From positions 31,148,769 through 31,212,768 of the forward strand of contig NC_092630.1 of the NCBI RefSeq assembly GCF_039555335.1: DNA of 64,000 nucleotides, in the 5' to 3' direction. The notes beneath the pieces were generated by a model. It was not told the DNA's origin. It did not search any database and was given only the letters and a program-made list of their open reading frames with translations. Position 1 is the first letter of the stretch, and the number at the start of each line of letters is the position of its first letter. Below, piece after piece: positions 15,884-52,068 of the stretch. The DNA comes from Amphiura filiformis. Lineage: Eukaryota. Made by a program: the position numbers and the translations under genes.

Positions 15884-15964
15884 CTGCATTTTAGGTCCAG
15901 ATACAGCAATAGCATTGAGTGTGTCAGTACCAAGAGTTTTCACTATCTCGTTAAACTTAGTGCC
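15884..15964 (-). CDS. MVP: MVP exon 24. Translates GTKFNEIVKTLGTDTLNAIAVSGPKMQ. This is the last exon placed with confidence.
   Basis: Equal-length alignment to [27 protein letters not shown]; acceptor tttacacag|, donor CAG|gtatgc. Downstream exon(s) for the ..LITDGS.PINLF.. segment and the 3' UTR were not found with confidence. Confidence 0.8.
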
Positions 15965-16139
15965 CTGTGTAAAGATAAAATAAGCAAAGATATATAGTCA
16001 AGGATTGGAACAACACAAGAAATGAATTTCAAGTGGTGGTATACTTCTCTACTAAATTGTTGCATGAATTAGGCACATATGGAACTTTCCTACTATTCAT
16101 GAAGTTGCATTCCTTTGTGTAAAAGAGTTAGAGAATAAA

Positions 16140-16298
16140 AGATAGGATTTTGTCTTTTGCCTATCCAATATCGTGTCATAATGGATGGGCTGGCCAATAT
16201 TAGTGGATGCCAGCGCAGCCGGTATCCACTACGATAAAAATATTGGCCACCCCATCCATTATGACACGATATTGATAGGCAAAAGACAAAATCTATCT
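16140..16298. repeat. Near-perfect 160-bp palindrome (hairpin/foldback).
   Basis: gataggattttgtcttttgcctatccaatatcgtgtcataatggatgggctggccaatatt .. aatattggccaccccatccattatgacacgatattgataggcaaaagacaaaatctatc. Confidence 0.75.
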
Positions 16299-17048
16299 TT
16301 TATTCTCATTCTTATTCAGTTTTAATGTAATTTTTGCCAGAAAAACTGCCTTTTTTCAGAAAAAAATAAAGTTACGTTTGTGAGGACATCCCTGTTGTTT
16401 TAAATGAACGAAACCATCACGAACATCTAAGCCGCCGAATCACGTTCTTAGTTCTTGCACGGTATTACGTGAACGCATTATCGCGCGATCATTGAGGAGC
16501 AACAAGCGTGCCGCCGTTGCGTGGCGGCGACGCCTGACTAATATCACTATCAACTATTGTGAGATATTATACACCGAAAACCAATCAAATTACGTGAATT
16601 CTTAACAAGACGCACCCATTGAATAAGAAGGCTCAATGCTATGATGGAGAGCAGATATACATAAAATTAGAAGACAATTCTTTACCTCTTTGTTTTACCA
16701 ATACCTTCTCTAGATTTTGATTTTGATTTGATTTGTTCTGGTTCGGACAACCCTGGATAACCCAAGAAAGCCTCTATTGAAGCTTATTTCCATTGGGGTC
16801 CATTTGAACACCGGGACAGGTTGGGAACAGTCGGAGGTTAACACCCTACTCTTTTCGAAACTGGCTGCGAAATACATGTACAGGTATGGCACTCTGCACA
16901 CAGGACCGACGGCTTAACGTCCCCTCCGAAAGACGGAGTACTTTCATGATTCATTTACCCAATTCTAAATGAACCATGGGGAGAGCGGAAGTCTGAATTT
17001 AATCTACAGAAGTTGCCAATTAATTTCAGACTTTTTTTTCCAAGTCAA

Positions 17049-17115
17049 TATCCCAGCAAATTGCCACCGTCGGGAATTGAACCCGGGACCTCATGCACTA
17101 ACCATTAGACCACGC
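17049..17115 (-). pseudogene. tRNA-like fragment (D-arm plus T-arm/acceptor, no anticodon arm). tRNA pseudogene or SINE remnant.
   Basis: Minus strand reads agcgtggtctaatggttagtgcatgaggtcccgggttcaattcccgacggtggca. Boxes A and B are present but the anticodon stem-loop is missing. Confidence 0.5.
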
Positions 17116-17677
17116 TCTCCCTCTAGTTTCCCTCTGTTACTGCTTTGCTTTCCCCTTCTTATAATATAATACCGGTACTTTCCAGTGTCCATCTGTCTTT
17201 CTCAAGAGACCTTTTCAGGAGAACTTTAACTAAAAACACCAATCATGTACAAATCAAAACAATTTCAGCCAACCAATTTCTGGCAATTTGAATGTGTTTG
17301 TTTATTTGTTTGTTTTATTTCTTCTTTAACCTGGGACACTCAATCCGTTAAAAACACAATTAATCATCTGTTTTTCCTTGAGGCCTAGGTATGTGACCAT
17401 GCAGTGGACACCGCTTTCAATATGCTGCATCAAGAGCAACACTGTACATAATTGGTGTGTGCACTCATCAAACACCCTGTTACCATGATGTGATTGGTTG
17501 TGTGTTTTTGCTTCCTGCACATGGAATCTTTATGAACTAATTGTTTAAAGATTTCCGATAAGCTGTTGAAAGGTATCAGGACAGAACCTGAATAAAGTAC
17601 ATGTCTGAGAAATACACACAATATTATACTACATAGTCATACTATTGCTGTTTACTCTTTAGGCCAAAAAAAAAAGG

Positions 17678-17935
17678 TTTGTCTCAAAGATCGCGCGCGC
17701 ATTTGTAAAATCGTGAGATTTGGAAAAAAAGAAATGCAGAATTTTTTTTTATTTCAATTTTTTTTTTTTTTTTTAGTTTTTCCAGAAAAATTCGGCAAAA
17801 ATCAGATTTTTTTCTCCAAATACCATGAAAAAATTCGGGAATAAAAAAATAAAATAAAAAAATCGTATTTCGCATTTGTTTTCAAACCACTCGTGAGCTT
17901 TGAGACAAACCATTATTTTTTTTGCCTTATCAGGA
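17678..17935. mobile_element. A/T-flanked MITE with TIR AGGTTTGTCTCAAAG(A/C)TC. A second copy lies at 62788-63005.
   Basis: aggtttgtctcaaagatcgcg .. cgtgagctttgagacaaacc. The 62788 copy shares its termini and internal T-rich stretches. Confidence 0.65.
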
Positions 17936-18378
17936 GTTCTCAATTGCATTTGCACACGGGCCATGAACGGCCAAATTCATCAGAAAGATCTGTGTTTGAG
18001 GGCGAAATACCTTGTTTTGCTATTCAAGGTTCAACCACAATTGATCAACAGGCCAAATCTTGCCTGCAGGCTGCCTATTGAGAATTAGGGGTTCATTAAT
18101 ATATGTTCATTACTAAACGGTTGTTTATACCCGAGGGGCCGCTACCCCGTTCATACATACCAGAACATTTTGTGATTCTTATTTCATCAAAATAATAACA
18201 AAAAATTACAAGTAACATTATTAAAAATCATGATTTTCCTTCATTTTTCCTATCCGGCGATCGCACATCCGGGACACCGGGCATAAACGCTGTTTATGCC
18301 CGGCTCTCGACCAATCATGTGCGCCGTTACATAGCGTGTATGTATGAACTCCTGCTCTATATCAACAAATACAATTAC

Positions 18379-18570
18379 CTCAATATCAGAAAGCTGTTGT
18401 GCCCTAGATATCTCCAGGTGGTTTGACTCTTTGACGTAAGCCAACTCATTGTGTCTCATATCAGACTGAATCTCAAGCTCGCTTGTATGCATGATTTCCT
18501 CTGCTTGTGCTTTCAAACGGGCATTCTCTATAGCACTCTGACCCTCTATCAGCAACCTTTCTGCAGTAGC
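18379..18570 (-). CDS. MVP: MVP exon 23. Translates ATAERLLIEGQSAIENARLKAQAEEIMHTSELEIQSDMRHNELAYVKESNHLEISRAQQLSDIE.
   Basis: Aligns to [64 protein letters not shown] (C-terminal coiled coil); acceptor ttatatatag|, donor GAG|gtaatt. Confidence 0.9.
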
Positions 18571-19663: not shown

Positions 19664-19844
19664 CTGTGCCTCAGCCTTGGCTTGACCTGACGACTCCACC
19701 GCTGCCGCTTCAGCTTGTAACTCAAACAATTTGGTCCTTGCTTTTTCATTTTCTTTCTCATTCACTAGTTTCTGCCTCTCCAAGAGGCCAAATGCTTGCT
19801 GTTCCTTTCTCTTGGCATCATGAACTGCTGCTCTCTCAACAGAA
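19664..19844 (-). CDS. MVP: MVP exon 22. Translates (N)SVERAAVHDAKRKEQQAFGLLERQKLVNEKENEKARTKLFELQAEAAAVESSGQAKAEAQ.
   Basis: Aligns to [60 protein letters not shown]; acceptor tctttaatag|, donor CAG|gtatta. Confidence 0.9.
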
Positions 19845-20218: not shown

Positions 20219-20319
20219 TTTGTGGCAATTTCAATAGCCATTTGTACTGACTTGAGTAAGCTATCCTTCATGGTTAGGTCAACTGGCTCTATGCCTTGCA
20301 CATCAACATTTGTGATAAC
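20219..20319 (-). CDS. MVP: MVP exon 21. Translates [33 protein letters not shown](K/N).
   Basis: Aligns to [34 protein letters not shown]; acceptor cattttgtag|, donor AA|gtaggt. Confidence 0.9.
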
Positions 20320-21137
20320 CTACAAAATGATAATACAAAAGATTTATTTGACATTTGTTTGCTATGAATGAAATCTAGCTCCACTGAAACTAGAGCCCTG
20401 AGGGACAACCTGAAAATTCAAAATACCCGATTCAGCCCAACAGCAGATCGGATTAAAACAATTTCATAATTTATGCGTCATCATGGATCAGGGATATATC
20501 AAAGGTTGGAATGTATTCTCTTGACCATGTATACCACTCACTGATTAAGCACACATCACATCGTAGGAACGAGACTACCAGTTCCCGCAGGAGATGCAGT
20601 GAGCCTGTATAAAGCACCTGTGATCAAGATGGCATATCCTGCAATCGAAAGCTAAGAAACATGAGTTTTAAATCTTTGGATTTGTCTACCAAAAATTGAA
20701 TAATAAGTTGTCAATTCTTGTTTGCAATATACATTAATTATAGGTTAATGAACGTGTATTACTTGTTGGGAGAGAAATTAGACAAAATAATGCACGCGTG
20801 CTGATGTTGATGCATCTAATGCACGAGCCCGAACCTATTTCATACACGAGAAGAAAGAAAAATGTGTGATTTTTCTGTTTTTATAACGAATTATCACTAA
20901 ATATGTTGGAAAATAGAAAGAAATATAAATGCATCAACCTGCCCGAAAAATGAATCAATCCGACGCGACGTGAACGCGCGCGAAACACTGCGCGTAGTAC
21001 GCGGAGTGCACAATATACACAATCAATGCATATTTCGCATTTTTCTAACGTTTGCTCTGATTGGATCTCGCTATCAAAGAGTGTATGAAACCTTGACAGA
21101 CTAATACATGTAATTAATCAAACAAAATGATACTTGC

Positions 21138-21277
21138 CAGTTGGTTAGAAAATTTCAATCTGTCTTTGACTTTGCCATCGTCTGTTGCGCCAAATACAGC
21201 TACTTTGAGAAGCTCCATGGAGTGCTTATGAAACTCATCAAACTTGACTCGAGACACAGCTCCGCGTATTCGACTAC
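21138..21277 (-). CDS. MVP: MVP exon 20. Translates (G)SRIRGAVSRVKFDEFHKHSMELLKVAVFGATDDGKVKDRLKFSNQL. Probable GC donor.
   Basis: Aligns to [46 protein letters not shown]; acceptor tttctaacag|. Only CTG|gcaagt (GC donor) keeps the frame with exon 21. There is no in-phase GT. Confidence 0.75.
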
Positions 21278-21599: not shown

Positions 21600-21840
21600 T
21601 ACACTTTTGCTTATTATTTTTATTTGAATTGAAGTATTTAATAATGAGAATAAAGGTATTGTTTTTAGTCACTGTCATGCATCTATCATCTCATATAACA
21701 CAGGCAACATCATTATTTTTGGCGTGAAACAACTCGGCTTAAAATAATGATGTCGCCTGTGTTATATGAGACGATAGATGCACGACAGCTGCTAAAAACA
21801 ATACCCTTATTCTCTAAATATAAGAATAAATATGATAAGG
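21600..21840. repeat. 240-bp palindrome / MITE-like hairpin.
   Basis: taataatgagaataaaggtattgtttttagtc..catctatcatctcatataacacaggc.. is the reverse complement of ..gcctgtgttatatgagacgatagatg..gctaaaaacaatacccttattctc. Confidence 0.65.
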
Positions 21841-22375
21841 TGTCTTAGCTGTATACAGGGGCAGCATATTCAGTCTTTTAGGTTTAGTTATGTGTAACAA
21901 ATTTCAGAAATTTATTTAATACAAAAGGAGTACTGTTTCAAAATTTTCTCCAAAATATGTGGAAAGTGCTCATTTTCATTGTTTCTTAGCAAAATTTTTT
22001 CACAATACTTCCAGAAGTTATCATGAAAGTTCATCTTTTTTGGTGATCAAATAAATGGAAGAATTGGACTTTTGTTCACAACACATAAAGTTGCTCACCT
22101 TACATTTTCGGTTATTTACACTACAACCTACAACTTAGCAAGAGTCTACGATCCAGTTCTGACGTCACAAGTCAAAGAGTCCGGCGTCAAATCGATCAAC
22201 GAAGGTTGTAGTGTAAACAACCGAAAATGTAAGGTGAACAACTTTATGTGTTGTAAACAAAAGTTCAATTCTTCATTTACTTCAAGTTGTCAAATGAATT
22301 CAAATCACTCCTTCAATGAACAATCAGTGGGTGCGCAAGGGGGGGGCAGGGGGCAACAGCCCCCACTTTGTTGGT

Positions 22376-22631: not shown

Positions 22632-22710
22632 CAACTTCCCTGCATGCATGCCCTATGAAATCAGGCACAGAGAATATAGCCTCCTCCCCTGCTTTGTCTC
22701 CTGGCTCAAC
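22632..22710 (-). CDS. MVP: MVP exon 19. Translates VEPGDKAGEEAIFSVPDFIGHACREV.
   Basis: Aligns to [28 protein letters not shown]; acceptor ccaatag|, donor G|gtaagt. Confidence 0.85.
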
Positions 22711-23288: not shown

Positions 23289-23348
23289 CTCAAAGTGATT
23301 GTTGAAAGCCATTCTTATTTTCAGTCTGGCATGGTCTGATGTTTCCAC
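23289..23348 (-). CDS. MVP: MVP exon 18. Translates VETSDHARLKIRMAFNNHFE.
   Basis: Aligns to [20 protein letters not shown]; acceptor atttcag|, donor GAG|gtgagt. Confidence 0.9.
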
Positions 23349-25519: not shown

Positions 25520-26010
25520 TTATGATAAACAATCTAAAGTCGTATCTTTTCGATGCAGTTGCAGTGATGCAGTTTTGCCAACATTTAATATGTCGCAAAT
25601 GTTTCAGATGAATAAGAAAATCATGAGTGTTTGATAGATGAGGATAAATTCTGCATCAATTCGGATTCTGAAATGGATTGATGGCGCAGATAATGATAAA
25701 ATGGACCCGGAAGTGACTGTATGAAACGCCGATGTTCAGTCTTCCGAATTTGATAAAGTAATGCTGTAAACAATCTAAAGTCGTATCTTTTCGAAAGATG
25801 ATTGCAGTTTTGCCAATATTATGTCGCAAATGTTTCAGATGAATAAGAAAATCACGAGTGTTTGATAGATGAGGATAAATTCTGCATCAATTTGGATTCT
25901 GAAATGGATTGATGGCGCAGATAGTGATAAAATGGACCCGGAAGTGACTGTATAAAGCGGCGATAGCGCCGATGTTCAGTCTTCGAATTTGATAAAGTAA
26001 TGCTGTAAGC
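25520..26010. repeat. Tandem duplication of a ~245-bp unit (2 copies).
   Basis: The units 25520-25760 and 25761-26010 are about 90% identical (acaatctaaagtcgtatcttttcga..gatgaataagaaaatca.gagtgtttgatagatgaggataaattctgcatcaat..). Confidence 0.8.
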
Positions 26011-26599: not shown

Positions 26600-27830
26600 G
26601 CGGCGCGGTGATCCACCCAAAAAAACAAAATCATCGTATAGATCCCTGGTACTAGGTGCATCTTGACCCCAGCATAAGTTTGTATTGGTTAGTGGGTCAA
26701 GGTCACCTGAGGTCATCCAGGGGTCATCTGAGGTCAAATTTGCAAAAACTGTTGTAGGGGCATGAAACCGTGGGTACAGTCAACATTTGGAGTCAAATTT
26801 CGGGAAGGTCATCCGGGGTCACCCAGGGGTCATCTGAGGTCAAATTACTAAAAACTCGTATGGGCATGAAACTTGGTGGGTACAGTCAACATTTAAAGTC
26901 AAATTTTGGGAAGATACTAAAAATTGTCGTATGGGCATGAAACTAGGTGGGTACAGTCAACATTTGGAGTCAAATTTTGGGAAGGTCATTTTGAGGTCAT
27001 CCGGGGTCACCTGAGGTCAAATTACTAAAACTGTCGTATGGACATGAAACTTGGTGGGTACAGTCAACATTTGGAATCAACATTTTGGGAAGGTCATTTT
27101 GGGGTCACCCAGGGGTCATCTGAGGTCATATTACTAAAAACTGTTGTATGAACATGAAACTGGATACAGTCAACATTTGGAGCCAAATTTTGTGGGGTCG
27201 CATGTTCCTCGAACTTGGTGGGTGCATCTTGACCCCAGGCAGAACAAGTTTGTATTGGTTAGTGGGTCAAGGTCACCTGAGGTCATCCAGGGTCATCTGA
27301 GGTCAAATTAGCAAAAACTGTCATATGGGCATGAAACTTGGTGGGTACAGTCAACATTTGGAGTCAAATTTTTGGAAGGTCATTTCAGGGTCAACCGGTG
27401 TCACCCAGGGGTCATCTGAGGTAAAATTGCTAAAAATGTTGTATGGGCATTGGTGGGCACGGCCAACATTTGGAGCCTAATTTTGTAGGGTCGCACAGAA
27501 CAAGTTTGTATTGGATAGTGGGTCACGGTCAACAGAGGTCATCCAGGGGTCATCTGAAGTCAAATTAGCAAAAACTGTCGTATGGGCATGAAACTTGGTG
27601 GGTACAGTCAACATTTAGAACCAAATTTTTGGAAGCTCATTTCGAGTCAGCCAGGGGTCACCTGAGGTCAAATTACTAAAACTGTCGTATGGGCATGAAA
27701 CTTGGTGGGTACAGTCAACATTTGAAGTCAAATTTTTAGAAGGTCATTTCGGGGTCATCTGAGGTCACCATTTAGAGCAAAATTTTTGGGAGGTCATTTC
27801 GGGTCGACTGAGGTCAATTTAGATGAATTC
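26600..27830. repeat. Satellite-like tandem array of about 9-10 copies of a ~125-bp unit (..ggtcatctgaggtcaaattactaaaaactgtcgtatgggcatgaaacttggtgggtacagtcaacatttggagtcaaattttgggaaggtcatt..).
   Basis: Repeated units with internal ggtca-rich sub-motifs. Flanking gggaagcatgttcctcaaacttggtgggtg segments at 26280 and 27190 suggest a higher-order unit. Confidence 0.8.
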
Positions 27831-28766: not shown

Positions 28767-28846
28767 CTCCAGAATGTCTGTGATGTAATCAGGACCAAGC
28801 ATCAAGCAGATGGTCTGTAAGGCACGCTCTACTTTGGGCTTACCAG
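28767..28846 (-). CDS. MVP: MVP exon 17. Translates GKPKVERALQTICLMLGPDYITDILE.
   Basis: Aligns to [28 protein letters not shown]; acceptor tctcacag|, donor GAG|gtaagt; phase joins exon 16 (G+CT=Ala). Confidence 0.9.
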
Positions 28847-29407: not shown

Positions 29408-29504
29408 CACTAAGACTTAGAATATTGAAGTCTTCATGAGGTCCTAATATAACCATGTCTGGTCCAAACACCACACGTGCTGTCTTCTCTGCATATTTGT
29501 ATAC
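29408..29504 (-). CDS. MVP: MVP exon 16. Translates [32 protein letters not shown](A).
   Basis: Aligns to [33 protein letters not shown]; donor G|gtaaga, acceptor attaag|. Confidence 0.85.
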
Positions 29505-29617: not shown

Positions 29618-31084
29618 CTACAAATAGTGTTGTTAACATAAGAACAAAGTATTCCTGATCAAATATCACAATATTCATACAGCTGTGTATTGAAAGTAAT
29701 TTCATTTTAAACTCTGAAAACGGTCAGATATTGAAAAGCAATAAATGTGCAAGCATTTTATTTTTTTTCACAAAACTTCAGAGCCAGGAAGGTTAATACA
29801 AACTGATGTGAAGCCAATGACAACATAAAGTAACCTCAATAATCATTCAATTAATAATAATAATAAACACGTTTTTAGGGCGCATATAATACCACAAGGA
29901 AACTCAATGCGCTAACAGAAAAGTTAAAAGCAGCAAAAAAATATACAAATGCTACGAAACGTTATTTCAAACACATTAAAAATCTTAAGGTACATGACAA
30001 AATATCATATACACATTATACATCTTAAGGTACAACTCAGGAAAAAGCAAAATGGCAAAACCAAAAAATGTATGCATGATGCACATAGCAAAGACCTGGC
30101 AATAATCAGACAATATTATTTTGCAAACAGAAACTTGAACTGCAGGAGAGTGTTAGCCGAACCAACGCTAGCTGGAAGAGCATTCTAAAGTTTTGGAGCT
30201 GTGGCAGAAAAGGATCTTTGACCATAAGAACTAGTCTTTACACTGCGTGGTGGATCAAGGAGGTCTAATGAAGAAGACCGTAAAATTCTGCGCGGCACAT
30301 CTTTGGTTATGAGATTCGCGAGATACACTGGAGCTGTTCCATGAAAGCACTTGTGTCAGAAGCAGCTTGAATTCAATGCGTTTGGCGACGGGCAGCCAAT
30401 GAAGCTCATTCAGGATGGCTTGTACTCACATCAAATATTACACTCTTGTTTCTTACCTGCACTGCAGTGTTATGTGGACATCTGTATCTCACTACACGGG
30501 TCTTGTCTCTGGGCTGTGCAAAGTAAGAACAATCAAATCAGGCAAACAGTCTGTCATATAGGCACAAAATGAAGTCTACAAACCCTACATTAAACAATAC
30601 ATCCCTAGGTGGTACATTGGTCAGGTGAACAACCTTGTTCCAAACAATGAAAGGCGCAAGACCAGATGAGGTCCGTGAATATGCAAATCACAAAGTGACT
30701 CCAGAGATCTTTAATAGGGTCTAAAATTCAGTTTGCGAGTCTCGGATAAGGTTTCCGCAATTGTCTTATGTATTTTTCTTTAAAAATGTTTATAAGGAAT
30801 GAGGAATAATTATTTGAAATATGTATGAAGTGATTGTAGTATTTGTTTTCCCACTTGCATATCATAGATGTCCACCGTGGGCTTGTGCCATTGGCGCATT
30901 TATGTGCTGTGACCAAGGAGTGGCATTTGTCTGTAGGTGCATTTATGCTGCACATTAATGTGCAATGAGTGAAGGAAGAGTTAAATAGCTGATTTGGCGC
31001 AATTTTCTGGAAAAAAAAAGGTCTTCAAAAAATATGATGTACACATACACTCCTGGGCATTCTTTTAGTAACTGTTGTAGCAGT

Positions 31085-31512: not shown

Positions 31513-31597
31513 CTTTGTTCCTGAGTATTCAGGATCAATGGAGGATTCAAAATAGGCTAGCTTCCTGATGTCACCCTTGCCTATGCCACCACCATTC
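31513..31597 (-). CDS. MVP: MVP exon 14. Translates (K)NGGGIGKGDIRKLAYFESSIDPEYSGTK. An alternative downstream donor at 31491 is possible.
   Basis: Equal-length alignment to [29 protein letters not shown]; acceptor tatacag| matches exon 13 phase; donor AAG|gtaaat. A second donor ACAT|gtaatg lies 22 nt further on. Confidence 0.6.
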
Positions 31598-32039: not shown

Positions 32040-33200
32040 CAGATCCCCAATCTCTCTTCCAAGTACCTTGTACCTTGTACCTTGTACCTTGTAGATATCA
32101 CTCCCGAAGAGTCCACCAGGGACTATACTGGAAGTTGACGAGAGTGGTCCGGTGGTCTAACGGGGGCTGTGAAGTTGGTGGTCTTGGTCTTGGATGGAAG
32201 TCTTGAAGGTGGCGTGAGGTGGGCATGTCAACTGAAGATTGAGGAAGGCGTTCCAAAGGGAAATGGCTTCGGGGAAAAAAGACTGGATGGAGGGTGTGGA
32301 GGTGTGGTGTTGCACTTGAATTGCTTGTCGTGGCTTCGTCTGGATCTGGAGGCTTTCTTCTTGGTGTATAAGTCGGCGCCGAGGTCGATGTCCTGGTTGA
32401 TGATTTTATGAAGGGTAGTTAGTCGGAGCGTCTGGCGTCTGGTTTCGATGAGGTCCCATTTAAGGTCGGTGAGCATTTTTGTGACACTTGATTTTTCGCC
32501 TAAAGTCGCTGCACACAAAGCGAGCTGCTCTTCGTTGGACTTTCTGAAGAATTTGTTTATTTTCTTCGTACCAGGGTTCCAAGCAGCGGAAGCATACTCC
32601 AAGTGTGGTTGAACAATGGTTTGGTACAGGTTTTCTTTAACAGTTTTGGAACAATGATGAAAGTTTCTCTGAACAAAGTTTTCTTCCAGGGTTTCACCCA
32701 TCATAGAATACTTCGCAGAACCTGGTTGTCTTTTCCTGGACACCCTCATTACTTTGCATTTGGATGCGTTAAATCTCATGCCCCAGTCTTTGGACCAATT
32801 AACAAGACGTGTGAGGTCGGACTGAAGAGAACTTTCGTCTGCTTGCGAATTTATGGCTTTATATATAATGCAGTCGTCTGCAAACAGTCTTGTAGTCGAT
32901 TCAACAGCATCGGCGATGTCATTTATAAACAAAATGAAAAGGTGCGGGCCCAACACTGTGCCTTGGGGCACACCGCTCAGGACTGGTTTCCAGGCTGAAG
33001 TACAACCGTTGACCCTTACCCTCTGGAGACGGTCGGTGAGAAAAGCTTCAATCCACCGGGAAGTTTTATTCCTAATACCATAAAACTTAAGCTTCTGCAG
33101 TAAGCGCTGGTGGGGCACGACATCAAACGCCTTACTGAAGTCTAAGATGGCGATGTCAGTCGTCTGATTATTATTATGGTTTGTAGTCAGGTCATGAAGA
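32040..33200 (-). mobile_element. CR1/L2-like non-LTR retrotransposon fragment (RT plus 3' UTR), ending in a (CCTTGTA)n microsatellite at 32055-32098. It lies in the MVP intron between exons 13 and 14.
   Basis: RT ORF plus a short tandem-repeat 3' tail typical of the CR1 clade. The 5' end is abruptly truncated near 33200. Confidence 0.75.
32228..33118 (-). CDS. Reverse-transcriptase ORF (296 aa) of a 5'-truncated CR1/L2-like non-LTR retrotransposon. RT similarity continues upstream to about 33200 (..LDFSKAFDVVPHQRLL).
   Basis: ORF contains SGVPQGTVLGPHLFILFINDI .. LFADDCIIYK .. (RT domains 4-6, FADD catalytic motif). Upstream out-of-ORF translation reads RKKLIATLHDLTTNHNNNQTTDIAILDFSKAFDVVPH. 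Confidence 0.85.
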   Translation of the reverse strand: MPHQRLLQKLKFYGIRNKTSRWIEAFLTDRLQRVRVNGCTSAWKPVLSGVPQGTVLGPHLFILFINDIADAVESTTRLFADDCIIYKAINSQADESSLQSDLTRLVNWSKDWGMRFNASKCKVMRVSRKRQPGSAKYSMMGETLEENFVQRNFHHCSKTVKENLYQTIVQPHLEYASAAWNPGTKKINKFFRKSNEEQLALCAATLGEKSSVTKMLTDLKWDLIETRRQTLRLTTLHKIINQDIDLGADLYTKKKASRSRRSHDKQFKCNTTPPHPPSSLFSPKPFPFGTPSSIFS

Positions 33201-33503
33201 GTTGCGATGAGTTTTTTACGTTAGTTAAGTCTTTACAATAAACTGATTTACACAAAATCTACATTCAAATAATACCCACAAGCTGAATAAGATTATGTAT
33301 CCCTGCACAAGTTAGCTGCAATAAGCTCTGAATTCATCAGAATCCTGTCAGTATCACGCAAACAATCTAACAACAGGTATGTCTCTGACCCGAATTGCAT
33401 GAAGCACAGGTCAGTGTGTATGGAAACTGTACTGAATTTTGTGAGTTACTTCCGAGTTCACTCATATCACCAGGTAGTGACAGAAAGTAATAATTCTACT
33501 TAC

Positions 33504-33598
33504 TTGAGTATAGCTTCAACATCTGGCGGTAATTCTTTCTTCCACAGCTGTTCATTTTCATTGAGCAGATATGATTGAGGACCCATCTCTGCACGGAT
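33504..33598 (-). CDS. MVP: MVP exon 13. Translates IRAEMGPQSYLLNENEQLWKKELPPDVEAIL(K).
   Basis: Aligns to [32 protein letters not shown]; strong acceptor ttttctttcacag|, donor CAA|gtaagt. Confidence 0.9.
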
Positions 33599-33635: not shown

Positions 33636-33878
33636 AATACCGTAAAACCTCGTCTACAAGCATATAGTGTGTTTTTGATGAAAGCTAAATTGAAATGAGA
33701 CAGCCGTAAATATGCCAATACAATAGATTGGTCTTACAATAGTACTTGTTTGTATATGTTTGTATCGGTAATTAATTTGCTCAAACTCAATAATATTATA
33801 ATTTAGTTGATGGATGGCGTGTGAATTAATTTAGCTTTCATCAAAAGCACTCTATATGCTTATAGACGAGGTTTTACG
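33636..33878. mobile_element. MITE with TIR TACCGTAAAACC(T/C)CGTCTA(C/T)AAGCATATAGTG. A second copy lies at 41338-41560. This copy starts 38 bp from the acceptor of MVP exon 13.
   Basis: taccgtaaaacctcgtctacaagcatatagtgtg .. cactctatatgcttatagacgaggttttacggta. Confidence 0.7.
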
Positions 33879-34279: not shown

Positions 34280-34340
34280 CTCTCCTGATTGCATATCTCT
34301 GACGTATATACCTTCATTGATCCCCAATGCAATGGCTTTC
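34280..34340 (-). CDS. MVP: MVP exon 12. Translates (R)KAIALGINEGIYVRDMQSGE.
   Basis: Aligns to [21 protein letters not shown]; acceptor cccttatag|, donor GAG|gttagt. Confidence 0.85.
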
Positions 34341-35560: not shown

Positions 35561-35924
35561 ACTGTGCGCATGATGATGCAATAACATCATGTGGGATACC
35601 TGCTTGTGCTTACGCTTTCTGAATTGAGGTTTTTTGATGTTTGGTACGATTAGGGTTAAACAACCTATGAAAGAGATACATACTTTATAGAGCTTCCAGA
35701 AATTATGGGAAAAGACAGTTTTATTGCATCAGTGTCTACTTAATTCACCTTTTTTCAGCGTATCTGAGCTGTATTTGAGGTCCAGCTTATTACTTATTCA
35801 AGATCACCTGTTGTATATGAAAGACAGGCTGGTAGTCATGTGACACAGTCCACAGTATTGCAGTAGGAGTGTCGCGTGTCGTCTCTCATAATTTAGTACT
35901 ATCAGGTTGAGTCCACATTGACTT

Positions 35925-36100
35925 ACCGGCATAACTACAGAATACCCACCTCACCTCCCAACACAGCATTAGGGTTAGGGTTAGGCTTAGGATTAGGGTT
36001 AGGAGGGTTAGGATTAGGATTAGGGTTAGGGTTAGGGTTAGGGTTAGGGTTAGGGTTAGGGTTAGGCACCCTGAGCGGGGTATTCTGTAGTTACTCCGAC
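35925..36100. repeat. Interstitial telomeric repeat (TTAGGG)n (about 18 units with variants) at 35955-36065, bounded by 22-bp inverted repeats (cggcataactacagaataccc / gggtattctgtagttactccg).
   Basis: The array reads ttagggttagggttaggcttaggattagggttagg..(ttaggg)x8. The flanks are reverse complements of each other. The right flank ends 5 bp from the MVP exon 11 donor (36105). Confidence 0.85.
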
Positions 36101-36104
36101 TTAC

Positions 36105-36213
36105 CTAACAAACACACCATTGCCTTGATCAATAACTTGCACCTGTATAGGAGGAATGTAGCTGACAGGCCCTTGAATCATCCATCTGTCACCTGGCTCC
36201 CGGTCTGGTTTGT
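36105..36213 (-). CDS. MVP: MVP exon 11. Translates (Y)KPDREPGDRWMIQGPVSYIPPIQVQVIDQGNGVFV(R).
   Basis: Aligns to [24 protein letters not shown]; acceptor ttttcattcag|, donor AG|gtaagt. Only this donor gives the phase needed by exon 12. Confidence 0.8.
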
Positions 36214-36415: not shown

Positions 36416-36795
36416 ACAGATTTCGTGTTAAGGGGGTACTACACCCCTGCCCAATTTTGTCCCTATTTTTGCATTTTTCTCAAAAATTATAGCGCATTGG
36501 TGACAGGTAAGATATGTATATTATAGGGGCAAGGACTACAACTACTGTACTGGAAACTTTATTTCAGCACAGACAACAGTTGTGGAGTTACAGTCAAAAA
36601 TGAGGGAAAACCAATATTTGATCAATAAATCAATAAATACTTGCCTTGAGTTGCTGAATTTTTAGTGCAGTAGTTGTAGTCCTTGCCCCTATAATATACA
36701 TATCTTACTTGTCACCAATGCGCTATAATTTTTAAGAAAAATGCAAAAATAGGCACAAAATTGGTCAGGGGTGTAGTACCCCCTTAAAGAGTGGA
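36416..36795. mobile_element. MITE with long (~145 bp) inverted arms and TIR GGGGGTACTACACCCCTG.
   Basis: gggggtactacacccctgcccaattttgtccctatttttgcattttt..tatagcgcattggtgacaggtaagatatgtatattataggggcaaggactacaactactg is the reverse complement of 36650-36795. Confidence 0.8.
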
Positions 36796-37066: not shown

Positions 37067-37174
37067 ATGTTCCTGGAATTGAATCGTCTGTGAACTTATC
37101 AAGAGCCTCGACCACCACAGCTTCATCTTCTGCCAACACATACTGCTGTTGGATACCAGCAGGTATGCTCTCTC
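37067..37174 (-). CDS. MVP: MVP exon 10. Translates ESIPAGIQQQYVLAEDEAVVVEALDKFTDDSIPGT.
   Basis: Aligns to [39 protein letters not shown]; acceptor tgtgtag|, donor T|gtgagt. Confidence 0.8.
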
Positions 37175-38054: not shown

Positions 38055-38196
38055 CTGGATGTAAAAAGAAGCTTGAGATTCCCACTCTCAGTTCTTCCTT
38101 ACCAAGCTGACATTTCCCTTTCTTGTCTACAGGATCTTTCACAACACAATAACAACCTTTTGGTAGAACAGTTTTCTTCACTGAACGCAAAACTGT
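38055..38196 (-). CDS. MVP: MVP exon 9. Translates TVLRSVKKTVLPKGCYCVVKDPVDKKGKCQLGKEELRVGISSFFLHP(G).
   Basis: Aligns to [46 protein letters not shown]; acceptor gacttacag|, donor CAG|gtaggt; phase joins exon 10. Confidence 0.85.
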
Positions 38197-40816: not shown

Positions 40817-40978
40817 CTCTCCTATCTCTTGAATATAAGCTTCTACATCATCTCCTGTGACTAGCCATTGTTCTCCAGCAGTCCTCTTCTTTCCCTGTGC
40901 ATCTACACATGCATATTTCGCTTCCAGATGTAGACCTTCCCATTGTGTTAAAATATAGGCTGATTCTATGGTCAACAC
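40817..40978 (-). CDS. MVP: MVP exon 8. Translates VLTIESAYILTQWEGLHLEAKYACVDAQGKKRTAGEQWLVTGDDVEAYIQEIGE.
   Basis: Aligns to [55 protein letters not shown]; acceptor ttttaacag|, donor GAG|gtactg. Confidence 0.85.
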
Positions 40979-41337: not shown

Positions 41338-41560
41338 ATACCGTAAAACCCCGTCTACAAGCATATAATGTGCTTCTGATGAAAGCTACATTAATCCAGT
41401 CGCCATTATGGAGTTTGAGCAAATAAATTACGGATCCAAGAATATACAAACAAGTATTATTTTAAGACCGATCTATTGTATTGGTATATTAATGCTTGCT
41501 TCGAATTAATTAAGCTTTTATAAAAAACACTATATATGCTTGTAGACGGGGTTTTACGGT
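41338..41560. mobile_element. Second copy of the TACCGTAAAAC-TIR MITE, in the MVP intron between exons 7 and 8.
   Basis: accgtaaaaccccgtctacaagcatataatgtgc .. cactatatatgcttgtagacggggttttacggt. Confidence 0.7.
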
Positions 41561-41831
41561 ACTCTATTTCACTACCTCCAGTCAGCAGCACTTGCTTTGA
41601 AGTTCAGCATGTTCTACATTAGCTTAGCGTTACTTGGTGTGTGTACATACTTTTTACATGCGCGATCAAAGTGGCGCAAGAAATAACGCTAAGCTAATGC
41701 AGCACACGCAGACCTTCAAAGCTTGTGCAAAAAAGAGGTAGTGAAATAGGTATACTAGTTTCAGGAAATGGGAGTATATAAACCAGAGTCATGCAGATCT
41801 TAACAAACCTAATATGGACTGGGCTTCTTAC

Positions 41832-41901
41832 CTGTTCATAAACACCAGGCAAATAAGCCCCTGCTTCTCTTACAAGCCATTCTTCTTCTGCCACCCTTTT
41901 A
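41832..41901 (-). CDS. MVP: MVP exon 7. Translates KRVAEEEWLVREAGAYLPGVYEQ.
   Basis: Aligns to [24 protein letters not shown]; acceptor tgcatgcag|, donor CAG|gtaaga. Confidence 0.85.
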
Positions 41902-42556: not shown

Positions 42557-42648
42557 ACTCCATCCTTGTCTGTAAACTCCTGCAATGCTTGTAATCTTAC
42601 TGCTTCATTCTTCTGGATTATCACAGGGTCTACCATACCAACTATTTC
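42557..42648 (-). CDS. MVP: MVP exon 6. Translates EIVGMVDPVIIQKNEAVRLQALQEFTDKDG(V).
   Basis: Aligns to [31 protein letters not shown]; acceptor cacttacag|, donor GT|gtaagtag; phase joins exon 7. Confidence 0.85.
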
Positions 42649-43211: not shown

Positions 43212-44054
43212 TCATTCCAGTCGGTCGTCGTTCTGTGGAAGTAGCTGAATTTGTGCACATCCTTCCTGATCAGCTCCCTTCTTCCTGCTCATTCTTCTGT
43301 GAGTTCTAGTAAACCAAGGAAGATTTCTTCTGTTGGATGACATTTTGGTTGGAACGTTCTCCTCCATCACTTGTTTGATCTTTCTATCAAACATGTCCCA
43401 TTTTTCTTGGACAGTGAGGTTGGCTTCATTTCTGAAGGAGTCACCAAAGATCTTCATGTCTTGCTTTATCTTCTCCACATCAGCCTTGTGCTTCAGGTAG
43501 ATCTTGTGGGGAGGTTTCTTCTTTACTTGAGCAAATCCATTTAGCACCGATAGCACAGCCTCATGATCACTTAAGCCTGGTATGACTTCCACATTCTTGA
43601 TGAAGGAAGAGTTGTTGGTGAGAACCAAATCAAGTATGCTGTTGAGTCTGGTTGGTTTGTCAACCACCTGTTCTAAGCCATGCTCTTGTACAGTCTGAAG
43701 CAGCCTCTCTGCAGTTGTTTTGGATGCCGGATGGTTTACAATCACCGTCTTGTTTACCCAGTCTATGTTTGGTTGATTTAAGTCACCCTGTATGACTACG
43801 TCCTTGAGTTTGGAGTGGTTGTTGATGTTTTCTAACATCACCGCTAGGTCTTCGACCGTTTCTATATCATCATGCTTGGGCTTATACAATGTTCCAAACA
43901 GTATAGGTCTTCTCCCCTGGATATCAAGTTGACACCAAAGCATCTCACTGTTTGTTTCCAGTTCTTGTCTACGGTTGACTGGTAGGTCCTTCCTGTATGC
44001 AAAAAAGACACCACCATGTCTATCCGTCCCACTAGATCTATCTCTCCTGTGCAA
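43212..44054 (-). CDS. APE-type endonuclease domain ORF (280 aa) of a non-LTR retrotransposon.
   Basis: Motifs ..LWCQLDIQGRRPILFGTLYKP .. VIQGDLNQPNIDW .. TRLNSILDLVLTN .. IPGLSDHEAV, the typical EEP/APE layout of ORF2 N-termini. Confidence 0.8.
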   Translation of the reverse strand: MHRRDRSSGTDRHGGVFFAYRKDLPVNRRQELETNSEMLWCQLDIQGRRPILFGTLYKPKHDDIETVEDLAVMLENINNHSKLKDVVIQGDLNQPNIDWVNKTVIVNHPASKTTAERLLQTVQEHGLEQVVDKPTRLNSILDLVLTNNSSFIKNVEVIPGLSDHEAVLSVLNGFAQVKKKPPHKIYLKHKADVEKIKQDMKIFGDSFRNEANLTVQEKWDMFDRKIKQVMEENVPTKMSSNRRNLPWFTRTHRRMSRKKGADQEGCAQIQLLPQNDDRLE

Positions 44055-44138
44055 AGCGTATCCATCTGGCAGAAATTCAGCATTTTCTATTGAAGAGTCT
44101 AGCCATGTCTCTGTCCCATGGATGAAGTCGGTTTTAGT

Positions 44139-44744
44139 TCATGAATCATAGCCTCCCATTCCGCACGCTTGTTCATGATGCTCTGGAAATTTATGTTCAG
44201 AGTAGTAAACAACATCTCTCTCCAAGTTCTTCTTGCTTGCGGGCTTCCTTTTATTTTTGGTCCTGTCAGTTTTGTCTCTGTCGTTGTCCCCACTCTTGTT
44301 GTCCTTGTCATTGTCTTCAGTGTCGTCATCATTGTCAGTAGTCTCTCCTTCAGTTGAAGAAAAATACGAGTTGGTGAAGCAAGTTATCTCACAGTGCGGA
44401 CACAACCAGTTGAAAGATTTATTTGTGAGGGTATCATAAGTATCATTATCCATTCCAGCACAGGCACAGTGTGTCCATGCCCCGCATGCATCACACTCCA
44501 GGCCCTCCTCTCCAAATTTTACGTTGTCAACACACATGGTACAGGGAGATGTACACTCTGGACAAGACCACTGTTTTCCATTTCTGATTTGGTTGAAATC
44601 ACCTGTTGATACACCACAGCAGCTGGCATGGTAATCTTGGCTGCACTCACCACATGTAATCCATCTACGGTTATGACTTCCCTGTCTGCCACACACATTA
44701 CACTCCCTTGCTAGCTGGTTTTCCTGATTGATGGGGATTACCAT
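44139..44744 (-). CDS. Cysteine-rich ORF (201 aa) with two PHD-type zinc fingers, followed by an acidic Asp/Thr-rich tail. Putative ORF1-like protein of the same retroelement.
   Basis: C4HC3 spacing: CNVCGRQ..WITCGECSQDYHASCCGV..WSCPEC and CTMCVDN..LECDACGAWTHCACAGMD..NWLCPHC. It lies immediately upstream of the EN ORF on the same strand. Confidence 0.65.
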   Translation of the reverse strand: MVIPINQENQLARECNVCGRQGSHNRRWITCGECSQDYHASCCGVSTGDFNQIRNGKQWSCPECTSPCTMCVDNVKFGEEGLECDACGAWTHCACAGMDNDTYDTLTNKSFNWLCPHCEITCFTNSYFSSTEGETTDNDDDTEDNDKDNKSGDNDRDKTDRTKNKRKPASKKNLERDVVYYSEHKFPEHHEQACGMGGYDS

Positions 44745-45699
44745 TGTTGAAAAAGGTTGCGATGAAAAAGATTGAGCGTTGTGATGCTCCTACTCCCGCT
44801 TATGATGCACACCAAAAAAGTTCAAAACACTGCAACACAATTTATTTCACTAGTTCACAAAGTTCACGAAATTAACACCAAAAACTGCAATGTTAAAAGG
44901 ATGATGCACTGCGATTTAAATATCTCCTGGCACGACGCTTTTAAAAACAGGATACATCCACTAAACGAAAATCATTTAAAAGTTAATAAAACGATGCAGG
45001 AAACGTTCCGTCTACTTGGTGCACGCTTCAATATCATGTCAGTAATAAGCATATCATGTCAGCAATATCATGTGAGTAATAAGCTTATAACTGGCATTTA
45101 TCATGTTTGCTGCATGTCACAATCGCATAATTGCATAATTGCAAGGATAAAACGTATTGTCAACTTCAACTTAGTCCATTGCCAAATTTTTCACTTACAA
45201 ATGCATTTTGTGATGATACTATCGATAAATCACCACGTACAAATAGTGTTTACATCGGCCACCATTTTTACCTGTCAGCAAGTCACATTTAGCCCTGATG
45301 GTTAAGCTGGCATAGCAGATTGCCTTACAAAAGATTGCCTCTAATAAATACACCCTTTTGGAAAATGCAATGCCTGACCTCAGTGTGTTTAATATAGAGG
45401 AAATAAAGTATTTGAGGAAATCCTGAGGCACATCCATGAATGACAAGACTAGAAAGAATCATAAATGTACATATGCACCTTACATAAAATAATGCACACC
45501 ATTCTATATCAATAAACAATGTTCTGAGTCTCATTTTGTTCACCATTTATAAGCTGAACAAACTAAAGGTGAACGAACATTGACATAGTGTGAGAATGTG
45601 TGATGCCAATTTGGTGCCATTCAAGAGTGCTGATTGGTAACAACTACATCACAAATCATCACATATTTATGTACTGTGTTCACATTTTGTTCACCTAGT

Positions 45700-46000: not shown

Positions 46001-46020
46001 AGTGCTGTCTAATGACTTAC

Positions 46021-46178
46021 AACTTCTGCTATTGGCATGTATGTACATGGTCCCTCTATCTGCCACAGGTCACCAGTCTGGCGTTTCACATCACCATCTT
46101 CAAAATCTAGAATTGCTTTCAAACGTATGGCTTGGTTTGGTTTCACTACTGGCAGAGGTCTTATGGCACTTGCATAAT
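46021..46178 (-). CDS. MVP: MVP exon 5. Translates (D)[52 protein letters not shown].
   Basis: Aligns to [49 protein letters not shown]; acceptor gattgatag|, donor GTT|gtaagt. Confidence 0.85.
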
Positions 46179-47882
46179 CTATCAATCAAAACAATATTTA
46201 ATTTTTTTAAATTCTAGACAGTTCACCTTTTTTACCATGATCTTTCATAGTTGTTACCAACCCAATACCGTGTGATACGTAACATGTCTCTGAACCTTAA
46301 TCAGGCGACACAGTATGTGTGTCGTGTACATGCACGGAAGACACACATTACAAGCAAAAATATGCCAGTATGTTACCACATGGGCACGCCAATTAAGCTA
46401 CAGGCAAATTTGAATCAAATGAATCATTAAGCCACAACATATTTTGATTTTAAATCTGGTATTTATTTGAATTTATGTATGAATGATATATAACAAATAC
46501 TAACTGTCTTAAATTCATTTTGACACAAAGCACGTGGGGATATCCCTCAAAGCCCCAGGTAATTTTGGTGATTCCCGAATCTGTCAAGCTCTTGCAAATG
46601 CAAAATTACGTCTGTCAAATCAACGGCTATCAGCAAAAAACCTGACCTCTGACCGTTGCTAGGAGATGTTTTCAAGTAGTTTCAATATCCCCTGAAGCTG
46701 TATATGCCAACTGCGCATAAAAATTGTTTATATGTTTACTGAGCATCGGTTTCAAAATATCAATGTCAATGGCGATATTAGGCCTACACGTAAATTTTGA
46801 CTTCTTGAAAACAATTGTGAATTCTGATGGCTTTTAAGCATAAAATCCAGATAAATAAATGATGAACACATAAAACCTGTATTTTCTTGAATATATTTGA
46901 TATTTTATTAGCAACAAGGTGAGTTTGGGAAATGTGTGTGATGCACGAATACTTCTGGCGGCAGTGATAGCCGAGATTTGATGACTAGATTCGCTACGCA
47001 AATACAATATTGCATCGCCAAATGCTACACTTTTTTTTTTGCATAGCAAAATAACTGTGATGCAAAATTTGGAAACTCCTATACAAACATGTGTTTTGCA
47101 TAGACAGCTATGCAAAAAATTGACTGAATTCGAACCCTGACTGTAATAAAATCCTTGCTACTGCATGGATTTGACAGTAATTTTGTAGAAATAAAATAAA
47201 ACAACATAACAAATCAGAAACACGCACAAAAAAATCAATACATTTACCTTTAGGTGTCTTCTTCCTGAGATCACTACGCACACCTGTGAGATCAAGTATA
47301 CAACACAATAATTGTTCATTTTAGACAAATGAAGAACAGTAACAAACAATATTACTTCATATTTGACAAACTACATTATATTAGTGTATATTTACTCCAC
47401 TGGCATCGACAACTCACAATGTATCATACTGTCTATAGAAATTGTATGACTCAAATAAGGAGCTTATTCTTTAGGCCAGCAATGCATCTAAAATACCCAA
47501 CTCTAGTTTTTTAATTGATATCAGTCAGAGAAAAGTGATTTTGAATTGATTCAAATGGCGTATGAATAGAAGCCAGAGTAGAATATTAGTGTTGGCATGA
47601 AAGTCACAATCAAAATCAAAGTCCAAAACTCTGTAACATTGTATATTTTTGAAATTAATCTTAAAAAGCAGTCAGGCTTGTATAACTAAGTCTGTAATTT
47701 ACTATTATTGATCTTGACAATTAATGATTTTCTATGTATAGCTTTTTGTATTCTGTTCTTGGCAGTAGAATACCTACATTACTCTGTCTGCATTTTAGCT
47801 TAATAATGTGCTGCAGGTCTTCACTGAAACTTTTAAGTTTCTTAAAACAATCAACATCCCTAGCTGTTACTCCATCACATAC

Positions 47883-48009
47883 CTCCATATCCTCCAGTTA
47901 TTAAACTTGCCAGTGAGTAGAAATTCTCGGCTCCCTGAAGTATTTCTCCTGGGTACAATGGAAATGGTTCCTGTAATTGGCAAACAAGTTCATAAATCAG
48001 TTTTTTTTC
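47883..48009 (-). CDS. MVP: MVP exon 4. Translates EKKLIYELVCQLQEPFPLYPGEILQGAENFYSLASLITGGYG.
   Basis: Contains the conserved DPFPLYPGEVL motif of repeat domain 2. Acceptor ttcctattattgaag|, donor GGAG|gtatgt; phase joins exon 5 (G+AT=Asp). It is ~20 aa longer than the vertebrate segment, so the 3' part is less certain. Confidence 0.6.
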
Positions 48010-48680: not shown

Positions 48681-48744
48681 CTGATTAAATCTGACTTGCT
48701 GGTATCCGTGGTTCACTTCACATGGCTCCCCTGGTGTGTACTTC
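48681..48744 (-). CDS. MVP: MVP exon 3. Translates (K)KYTPGEPCEVNHGYQQVRFNQ.
   Basis: Same length as vertebrate SRDAQGLVLFDVTGQVRLRHAD and similar to it; acceptor cctacag|, donor CAG|gtacat; phase-consistent. Confidence 0.7.
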
Positions 48745-49700: not shown

Positions 49701-50175
49701 ATGTAAGTGATCAACTTTTAATAACGTTGTGTTTTATTTAATCTTTGATTTTATATTGTTTCAAATTGCTGAAGCTATGAAGTGGATATATAATATATTA
49801 TGTTCTTGTGTAAGCATTTGCTGGTCAGGATCTCTGTAACTTATCAATATATATGGCACAATACATGCACTGGTCAATGTTTCCTAAAGTTTGTTTGGTT
49901 TATATAAGGCAGAAAAAAACCCTGATAACACAGTGTATTGATCAATGACCGGCGCACCCTTATGTGAATTTAGGCGAGCATAAGTTGGGACTTTCTTGAC
50001 GCGCGCAGTAACAAAAGCCGAATAATTTCCGCCTAATAAAAGCCGAACAAACTTAAAGGCAAATGAGCAGGAATGGTTTACATGTATGCCAGTGATTATC
50101 CATCAATACACAATTCAGATGAGGTTTTGAATATTATGTGAAGAAAGAAGGAATTGCTTGAACATGCATACTCAC

Positions 50176-50309
50176 TTCATTGGGTTCTTGATGACACAGT
50201 AATGGCCTGGTGGTACAATAATGCATGGTAAGGGGCCAGCCGTCACATGCTCATTGTTCATCAAAGTCAACCTCTTTGGACCAACCTCTAAACGGGTCAC
50301 GTTAGAGCT
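50176..50309 (-). CDS. MVP: MVP exon 2. Translates SSNVTRLEVGPKRLTLMNNEHVTAGPLPCIIVPPGHYCVIKNPM.
   Basis: Matches MVP [44 protein letters not shown]; acceptor cacag|, donor gtgagt; phase continuous with exon 1. Confidence 0.85.
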
Positions 50310-50639
50310 CTGTGTATGGGACAAAAAAATAGACAATATGAATATTTATATGTTTTAATAGTAATTCAATCATTATATTTTAAGAGGCATCCTTTTAGTC
50401 AATTCGATCAATTCAAATGGATGTAGCATATCTATTGAGTCATGCTGTTCATGTAGGCCCTACAAACCGTGCTGTTCATGTAGGCCCTACATACTGTTGC
50501 ATTCGAAATCTAGGCAGATTCACTGAAGCATTACACCGTGTAAAGCAATGGAAGTTCAGAAGTAAACACAGCTGATCACGATGGGTGACCGATTGCATCA
50601 AGAATGTTGCTAAAATTGCACTTCAACAAAATTTTGGAC

Positions 50640-50872
50640 TATCCCGGGGGGTCACTCCCATTGTGACCTGTACACCATCCGCGATAATCAACTTTTGAAA
50701 AGCACCCTAAACAAGGATTTAACCCTTTCATGTTTTTGACACCCTAAACGTGTTACGCGCGTCCCGACGCGCGTATCGTGCTTACCCACGAAAAACTACC
50801 CTTTTTACGCGTTTTCATTATCGCGGATGGTGTACAGTCCACAATGGGAGTGACCCCCGGGGACTATCCAAA
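50640..50872. mobile_element. MITE with ~45-bp TIRs (cccggggggtcactcccattgtgacctgtacaccatccgcgataat).
   Basis: Near-perfect inverted termini. The internal inverted pair gcgcgtcccgacgcgcg is GC-rich. Confidence 0.75.
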
Positions 50873-51102
50873 ATAGGCAATCTTTATTCAATGATAATGC
50901 AGTAATTTGCAGTTGACTCATCAAAATAACTTTCATCCAAATTTCAACATTGACATAATAAAATACTATCCGTTGCAAAAAATGTCATGGCTGACCGACC
51001 GCAAAATGAAGCAATATACTCTAGCATCTTATGCATAACTATCGTGTGGAAATTCAAAGCTAGAGAGTTCTTGAGTAAACTGGGTGCTCAAGGAAGTGGG
51101 CG

Positions 51103-51180
51103 AGATGGCTGAGCGGTTAAGGCGTTGCGCTGCCAGCCGGGAGATACGATAGACGAGGGTTCGAGCCTTGGGCTTGCCTT
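51103..51180 (+). ncRNA. tRNA-related sequence with a type II (Ser/Leu-like) 5' half. It is not a foldable canonical tRNA and is probably a SINE or pseudogene.
   Basis: ggcgagatggctgagcggttaaggcgttgcgctg..gagggttcgagcc has a D-arm identical to the tRNA-Ser/Leu consensus (GGC.GAGTGGTTAAGGCG) and a box B. The anticodon and acceptor stems do not pair. Confidence 0.4.
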
Positions 51181-52014
51181 AGGTGAAAATTCTCTTCCCT
51201 CCCAAAAAGTTCCTAGTCGGGAATCCTTCAATTAAGTTCAGTATTTAATTTCAGAATTTAATTGAAGAATTTCTTCTCGCCCCCATACACTGCTTAGCAC
51301 GTGCAGATATAGGTAGTGTATGTGCGAATTCTGTGATTCAGAAGTCACATAAAGCCGTTGGTCCCATGTTCAGGAGGATTCATCCCTGTGCACGTTTTAA
51401 GTATCAGATCTATTCGAAAATAGAAGGGGGATCATCCCCGGTTCTGATATCTGCACTCAACCCTCTAGGTTCGAGAGGACAAGATGGGTGTGATACAACT
51501 GTACATAGGTTGTCTATACCCATAAAATCCTGTAGAATGTAGAAAGGTGTTGGGCATCCACACTTTCTAATTCATGACGCTGCAAAAAAATAGGCAATGA
51601 ATTGATTTGGCATATCATTGTATTTTGCAAATTAGTAATTAGATTTTGAATGCAACAGTCTCTAGGCTCAAATGTAAAGCTCATCTGTGAGCAAATTCGT
51701 GGCTAGACTTCTCGAGCAACTCGGGCTCAGCATTGAAATTTCACAAGTGAATTGCATACATTTTTAAAAGACCAAAACACTTCATTGAAGTGTCATTTTA
51801 CCAACTTTATTAGTGATATGCATGCAATCATGATTGCGAGTGATCAGCTTTGTTATAGTTCTGAATTTCCATAAATGGTGATGGTCATTTACATGCAGAT
51901 TGTAGGTATTTTAATCTCACTCAGGTCATGGTGTCACGCATCACTGACCTCATCTAGTCATGACCCATGTTTATGTTTTATTTAATATTTCTTTCCAATT
52001 ATATATTGACTTAC

Positions 52015-52068
52015 CACATCCAGGACAAACACAAATTCATTGGGACCAATGTTCACTAGCCCACTCAT
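52015..52068 (-). CDS. MVP: MVP coding exon 1 (ATG at 52068). Translates MSGLVNIGPNEFVFVLDV. Donor GTG|gtaagtc.
   Basis: Minus-strand translation aligns to the vertebrate MVP N-terminus (..[14 protein letters not shown]); GTAAGT donor; phase 0 into next exon. The 5' UTR may sit in an upstream exon (AG at tttgcaaagtgtttag|). Confidence 0.7.

Follow-up and report, generated by a model that had tools for sequence, protein, structure and literature searches.

Does the DNA of the brittle star Amphiura filiformis on contig NC_092630.1 (RefSeq assembly GCF_039555335.1, positions 31,148,769 to 31,212,768) carry an intact gene for the major vault protein (MVP), or only exon-like remnants scattered among repeats? 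The vault shell consists of 78 MVP chains, and the particles contain vault RNA, TEP1 and vPARP. A preliminary description made from the letters alone had placed an MVP gene, complete from the N-terminus to the coiled coil and in at least 24 small exons, on the minus strand between positions 15884 and 52068 of this 64,000-nt stretch (hereafter the window, in whose coordinates all positions are given). We find on that strand what is, with very little doubt, a functional and single-copy-looking A. filiformis MVP gene of 26 coding exons, spliced to encode a protein of 881 aa. The gene is already known, being annotated in RefSeq as XP_072026388.1.

Gene identity and exon structure

A vertebrate (human) MVP sequence was used as the initial tblastn query against the window and gave collinear minus-strand matches from about 50312 to 13007. 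The draft protein made by joining these matches was used as a query against the protein database, where the top matches were all named MVP and the top relative was XP_072026388.1, an 881-aa RefSeq prediction entitled “major vault protein-like [Amphiura filiformis]”. Exact-word mapping placed all residues of XP_072026388.1 on the window, in 26 collinear blocks. When all switch points reproducing the protein were enumerated for the 25 gaps that separate the blocks, every junction (25/25) had a single canonical solution, giving 24 GT-AG introns and one GC-AG intron (intron 21). The joined coding sequence of 2646 nt translates into the XP_072026388.1 sequence followed by TAA, with 881 of 881 residues identical and no premature stop codon or frameshift in any exon, so that window product and RefSeq entry are the same gene. 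The order of the exons along vertebrate MVP and their consistent splice phases, both put forward in the preliminary description, are thereby borne out, and the mapping places the MVP exons at this locus free of frame-breaking stops.

The whole coding span (12983-52068, minus strand) covers 39,086 bp and includes 25 introns, with the start ATG at 52068 and the stop TAA ending at 12983. Exons range from 36 to 192 nt (median 93.5 nt) and introns from 374 to 5418 nt (median 999 nt, total 36,440 nt). A purine occupies position -3 of the ATG, which an in-frame TAG precedes by 12 codons. Past the stop, polyadenylation-like hexamers first occur at +511 (ATTAAA) and +1876 (AATAAA).

In order of translation, and all on the minus strand, exon 1 (52015-52068, 54 nt) encodes aa 1-18 (MSGLVNIGPNEFVFVLDV), exon 2 (50176-50309, 134 nt) aa 19-63, exon 3 (48681-48744, 64 nt) aa 63-84 and exon 4 (47883-47970, 88 nt, 18 nt longer than in Patiria) aa 85-114. 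The 36-nt micro-exon 5 (47248-47283), phase 1 at both ends, covers aa 114-126 (VRSDLRKKTPK). It is followed by exon 6 (46021-46178, 158 nt, aa 126-178), exon 7 (42557-42648, 92 nt, aa 179-209), exon 8 (41832-41901, 70 nt, aa 209-232), exon 9 (40817-40978, 162 nt, aa 233-286), exon 10 (38055-38196, 142 nt, aa 287-334) and exon 11 (37067-37174, 108 nt, aa 334-370). Exon 12 (36105-36213, 109 nt, aa 370-406) has the donor G|GTAAGTC, one copy of an 8-bp target-site duplication discussed below. Exons 13 (34280-34340, 61 nt, aa 406-426), 14 (33504-33598, 95 nt, aa 427-458), 15 (31513-31597, 85 nt, aa 458-486), 16 (30457-30513, 57 nt, aa 487-505) and 17 (29408-29504, 97 nt, aa 506-538) lead to exon 18 (28767-28846, 80 nt, aa 538-564), after which comes the longest intron (5418 nt). 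Downstream of it lie exon 19 (23289-23348, 60 nt, aa 565-584), exon 20 (22632-22710, 79 nt, aa 585-611) and exon 21 (21138-21277, 140 nt, aa 611-657), which precedes the sole GC-AG intron. Exon 22 (20219-20319, 101 nt, aa 658-691) is followed by two exons that encode cap-helix, exon 23 (19664-19844, 181 nt, aa 691-751) and exon 24 (18379-18570, 192 nt, aa 752-815). Exon 25 (15884-15964, 81 nt, aa 816-842) ends in ..AVSGPKMQ, and exon 26 (12983-13102, 117 nt coding plus TAA) encodes aa 843-881 (VELLESLGIETTIIMDGNNPFNLIQTAGGLVGDISAYAK), the end of the cap-ring. The only non-GT donor of the gene is the GC at 21136-21137 (CTG|GCAAGT); the MVP genes of Lytechinus and Antedon also have one GC-AG intron each, in other introns (19 and 21, in their own numbering).

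Both ends of the span first described are exact to the base, since the A of the start codon falls on 52068 and the last base of exon 25 on 15884; the final residues of that exon are the counterpart of vertebrate ..AVAGPEMQ. Within that span there are 25 exons, in keeping with “at least 24”. An intact MVP gene is indeed present, but the span omits exon 26 and with it the last 39 residues. Likewise, the upper limit of the reported 54-192 nt exon sizes is right but the lower is not; the quoted minimum of 54 nt suggests that exon 5 had not been noticed. Exon open reading frames (ORFs) were said to stay below 100 aa, from which two stop-to-stop ORFs depart trivially (103 aa at exon 4 and 106 aa at exon 24). 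Reading by eye can thus detect a gene of 26 exons that would escape ORF lists, with ends correct to the base, although beyond such quality control the MVP result matters little, and the micro-exon and the transposon at a splice donor are small curiosities.

Domain content and predicted architecture

The N-terminal part of the protein is an array of ~50-residue vault repeat domains, matched by Pfam Vault in four stretches (E=3.6e-58), Vault_2 in two stretches, Vault_3 and Vault_4. It is followed by the shoulder domain (PF11978 MVP_shoulder, residues 555-671, E=9.6e-41, full profile coverage), and all Pfam matches are far above the curated cut-offs. With phmmer the protein gave a full-length collinear match to the solved MVP chain 9z4w_A (E=1.3e-234; query 4-874 against chain 7-850), in which Amphiura residues 4-96 align to chain residues 7-106 and residues 130-874 to 108-850, and matches to rat and human MVP chains at E of about 1e-229 to 1e-230. 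The cap-helix and cap-ring correspond to residues ~672-874, which align with ~647-850 of solved MVP chains without large gaps; the cap-ring end is encoded by exons 25-26, and the 39 residues of exon 26 align to the mammalian cap-ring end. A low-confidence AlphaFold model predicts unbroken helices over 695-739 and 745-835. Amphiura keeps the residues that do not vary among ten animal MVPs, and identity is 62-65% to the MVPs of sea star, sea urchin and feather star, 57% to that of Lingula and 45% to the human sequence.

The chain has the full MVP architecture, with beta-sandwich vault repeats at the N-terminus, then a shoulder domain, a long cap-helix and, at the C-terminus, the cap-ring. By homology, 78 copies of such a protein would be expected to assemble into the barrel-shaped shell of the vault ribonucleoprotein. 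Sea urchin MVP builds vaults nearly identical to rat vaults (PMC550661). No vault RNA, small nucleolar RNA or other Rfam match was found in the whole window at gathering thresholds, and a transfer RNA scan of the whole window returned none.

Ancestral intron positions and intron growth

The MVP loci of Patiria miniata, Lytechinus pictus, Antedon mediterranea and Lingula anatina were used for comparison, with their proteins mapped as for Amphiura. Introns were counted as shared when they fell in the same protein-alignment column and phase, alignment slack being allowed in two variable loops. By this measure 24 of the 25 Amphiura introns have a counterpart, in position and phase, in Patiria and Lytechinus, 22 of 25 in Antedon and 21 of 25 in the brachiopod Lingula, a shared gene structure that marks the Amphiura gene as an orthologue of other animal MVP genes. 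The layout of many small exons is therefore ancestral (metazoan or bilaterian) and no peculiarity of the Amphiura locus.

Exon size ranges are nearly equal across the five species, while total intron length varies: Amphiura has 26 coding exons of 36-192 nt and introns totalling 36.4 kb (median 999 nt), Patiria 25 exons of 54-192 nt and 12.9 kb (335 nt), Lytechinus 25 exons of 54-192 nt and 28.6 kb (1123 nt), Antedon 23 exons of 57-232 nt and 8.3 kb (344 nt) and Lingula 25 exons of 57-231 nt and 12.6 kb (264.5 nt). Fragmentation into many exons of ~90 nt is an inheritance from the bilaterian ancestor, and the genome-specific part is intron growth through transposon and satellite insertions. The length of the Amphiura introns fits the published A. 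filiformis genome of 1.57 Gb, whose 59.3% repeat coverage is the highest among the four echinoderms compared (PMC11310086). MVP intron positions are thus strongly kept from brachiopod to echinoderms, while intron length tracks the repeat load of the genome.

Alternative readings and micro-exon 5

Long introns with transposon insertions, including one placed exactly on a splice donor, are what an unprocessed pseudogene or a decaying MVP duplicate with residual exon-like similarity might also present. Against decay stand the intact frame and the canonical sites across all 26 exons and 2646 nt, the retention of the invariant MVP residues, the rebuilding of the affected donor, intact, by a target-site duplication, and the occurrence of just one Amphiura protein among the top MVP matches. 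We reject the pseudogene reading as highly improbable, given that the frame is intact, the splicing canonical and the intron positions conserved. That the similarity arose by chance or from low complexity, or belongs to a different protein that merely contains vault repeats, is refuted outright: nothing was found in its support, and it is contradicted by the spliced full-length collinear match and alignment to MVP chains, by the presence of all MVP-specific Pfam domains, shoulder included, and by the orthologous intron positions. A functional MVP gene is left as the reading, and three points weigh against taking it further. Its expression, its untranslated-region exons and the use of every junction are predicted from the RefSeq model and sequence logic; a protein search aimed at ophiuroid transcripts turned up none that supports the 36-nt exon 5; and the AlphaFold model, built on a 10-sequence alignment, is poor (mean predicted local distance difference test score, pLDDT, 57.5) and adds little.

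The gene may also be real but slightly over-predicted, with exon 5 skipped or alternative and a main product of 25 exons and 869 aa. The variable-length loop within aa 97-129, which aligns at about rat residue 107, is longer by 18 residues in Amphiura; the 18-nt-longer exon 4 contributes six of them and exon 5 the other 12. Exon 5 and the 18-aa insertion are absent from the MVPs of Patiria, Lytechinus, Antedon and Lingula, and the intron between exons 4 and 5 is the sole Amphiura intron without a counterpart in these four species. Since its skipping preserves the reading frame (the exon 4-6 junction still reads GAT, D126), exon 5 may be a cassette exon. The search for ophiuroid transcripts, with the protein of exons 3-6 as query, yielded just two short fragments of environmental origin, neither of them informative: one is a genomic piece with a single exon, the other a distant sequence whose loop is short. 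AlphaFold pLDDT is below 50 across residues 33-134, too low to inform on the inserted loop. In favour of its inclusion, exon 5 has good splice sites (acceptor ...TGATCTCACAG|G, donor AAG|GTAAAT), an open frame that fits the flanking exons exactly, and a place in the RefSeq model. We therefore regard the 25-exon product as rather unlikely to be the main one and keep the 26-exon model, in which exon 5 is presumably part of the mature mRNA. If real, a brittle-star-specific 36-nt cassette with an 18-nt extension of its neighbour could be an alternatively spliced change of the vault barrel surface.

A telomeric-repeat element at the exon 12 splice donor

Intron 12 contains a 170-bp element bounded by terminal inverted repeats (TIRs) (36097-35928, minus strand), which together with its flanking duplications (35920-36105) abuts exon 12. 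Its TIRs are 20 nt long and match at 18 of 20 positions, and its interior (35969-36066) is the telomeric repeat (TTAGGG) in about 17 units, with twelve 18-mer matches where chance would give 0.01. On either side of the element stands GGTAAGTC, an 8-bp direct duplication without mismatches (36105-36098 and 35927-35920). The upstream copy is itself the exon 12 donor, made up of the last exon base G and GTAAGTC, and for this reason the element appears to have inserted into the 5' splice site of exon 12, the target-site duplication regenerating the donor. A decoy donor of the same sequence follows 178 nt after the true one, at 35926, and read-through past the true donor meets a stop codon immediately. 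As the telomeric repeat forms the interior of a duplication-flanked TIR element, what had been called an interstitial telomeric sequence is part of a mobile element and not the relic of a chromosome fusion. If this history is right, the exon 12 donor is a natural case of a splice site that a transposon struck directly without destroying it. Whether the micro-exon with its loop insertion and this hit on a splice donor are both real, functionally visible lineage-specific events is, in our judgement, evenly balanced.

Other repeats in the introns

The remaining repeat classes of the preliminary description, namely miniature inverted-repeat transposable elements (MITEs), non-long-terminal-repeat (non-LTR) retrotransposon fragments and satellites, like the telomeric repeat, are each present at least once in the introns. 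That the introns are “packed” with them goes further than the measure obtained, since the 13.8% of intron bases that recur within the window is a lower bound on repeat content. None of the 26 exons overlaps repeated DNA as defined by this within-window recurrence.

Intron 14 contains a retrotransposon reverse-transcriptase ORF fragment (32231-33220, minus strand; RVT_1, E=1.3e-26) and intron 6 the 5' part of a non-LTR retrotransposon (43215-44789, minus strand) in two adjoining ORFs, an endonuclease (43215-44138, Exo_endo_phos_2) preceded by an ORF with PHD fingers (44142-44789). The reverse-transcriptase, endonuclease and PHD-finger ORFs are all oriented as MVP is, in the sense direction. Pfam scans gave no significant family for seven further long ORFs from the introns and flanks. 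Tandem repeats occupy two parts of intron 18, at 25526-26008 (231-bp unit) and 26655-27823 (286/107-bp units). A TIR element at 36428-36787 has 129-nt arms that are 95% complementary, and further short elements with long TIRs lie at 22058-22274, 21646-21814, 50631-50874 and 16166-16274. One MITE-like family is represented twice, in intron 13 (33637-33882, 55-nt TIRs) and in intron 8 (41339-41561, ~55-nt TIRs), both copies being flanked by TA. The TIRs of this family begin (TA)CCGTAAAACCyCGTCTACAAGCATATA and the internal sequence has diverged; its TA flanks resemble those of Tc1/mariner or Stowaway-type elements.

Flanking DNA and neighbouring genes

Six-frame ORF pieces from the flanks of the gene (816 pieces from 1-12982 and 52069-64000) were compared by tblastn with the flanks of the Antedon, Patiria, Lingula and Lytechinus loci, and no conserved neighbour exon was detected in them, the single weak match (E=9e-5) being probably due to chance. 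The neighbours of MVP differ between species, and in Patiria the gene is flanked by isocitrate dehydrogenase and sideroflexin. A WD40-repeat gene of ~326 aa stands head-to-head with MVP in Antedon (positions 5371-9226 of locus L005) and in Lingula (positions 1-103 of locus L004). The occurrence of this pair in a crinoid and a brachiopod suggests old microsynteny; the WD40 neighbour was not found in the Patiria flanks, nor in the up to 12 kb upstream of Amphiura MVP in the window.

Satellites are found on both sides of the gene. Downstream, two oppositely oriented arrays of a 34-bp satellite (5813-6554 and 7975-8837), ~1.4 kb apart, form a large inverted structure. Upstream, a 35-bp satellite (ATGATAGCAATGGTAGGGTCAGATGCTATCTACTG, ~26 copies) extends over 53802-54700, beginning 1.7 kb ahead of the MVP ATG, and has a second short array 3 kb further on (57520-57668).

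Comparison with known major vault proteins and genes

Mammalian MVP (rat and human; e.g. 4V60, 7PKZ, 9Z4W) has the same order of repeats, shoulder, cap-helix and cap-ring as the Amphiura protein, although identity is only ~45%, with the human protein as the comparison sequence. The differences lie in a 33-residue Amphiura segment (aa 97-129) that corresponds to about one residue in mammalian MVP, and in two mammalian features that Amphiura lacks, an insert within the first 100 residues and a long C-terminal tail past residue 850. Among echinoderms, the MVP genes of Patiria, Lytechinus and Antedon have 23-25 coding exons and nearly all their intron positions and phases in common with Amphiura, which differs from them by one extra intron with its micro-exon and by the 18-aa loop insertion. 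Amphiura MVP is an ordinary orthologue with ancestral exon-intron structure.

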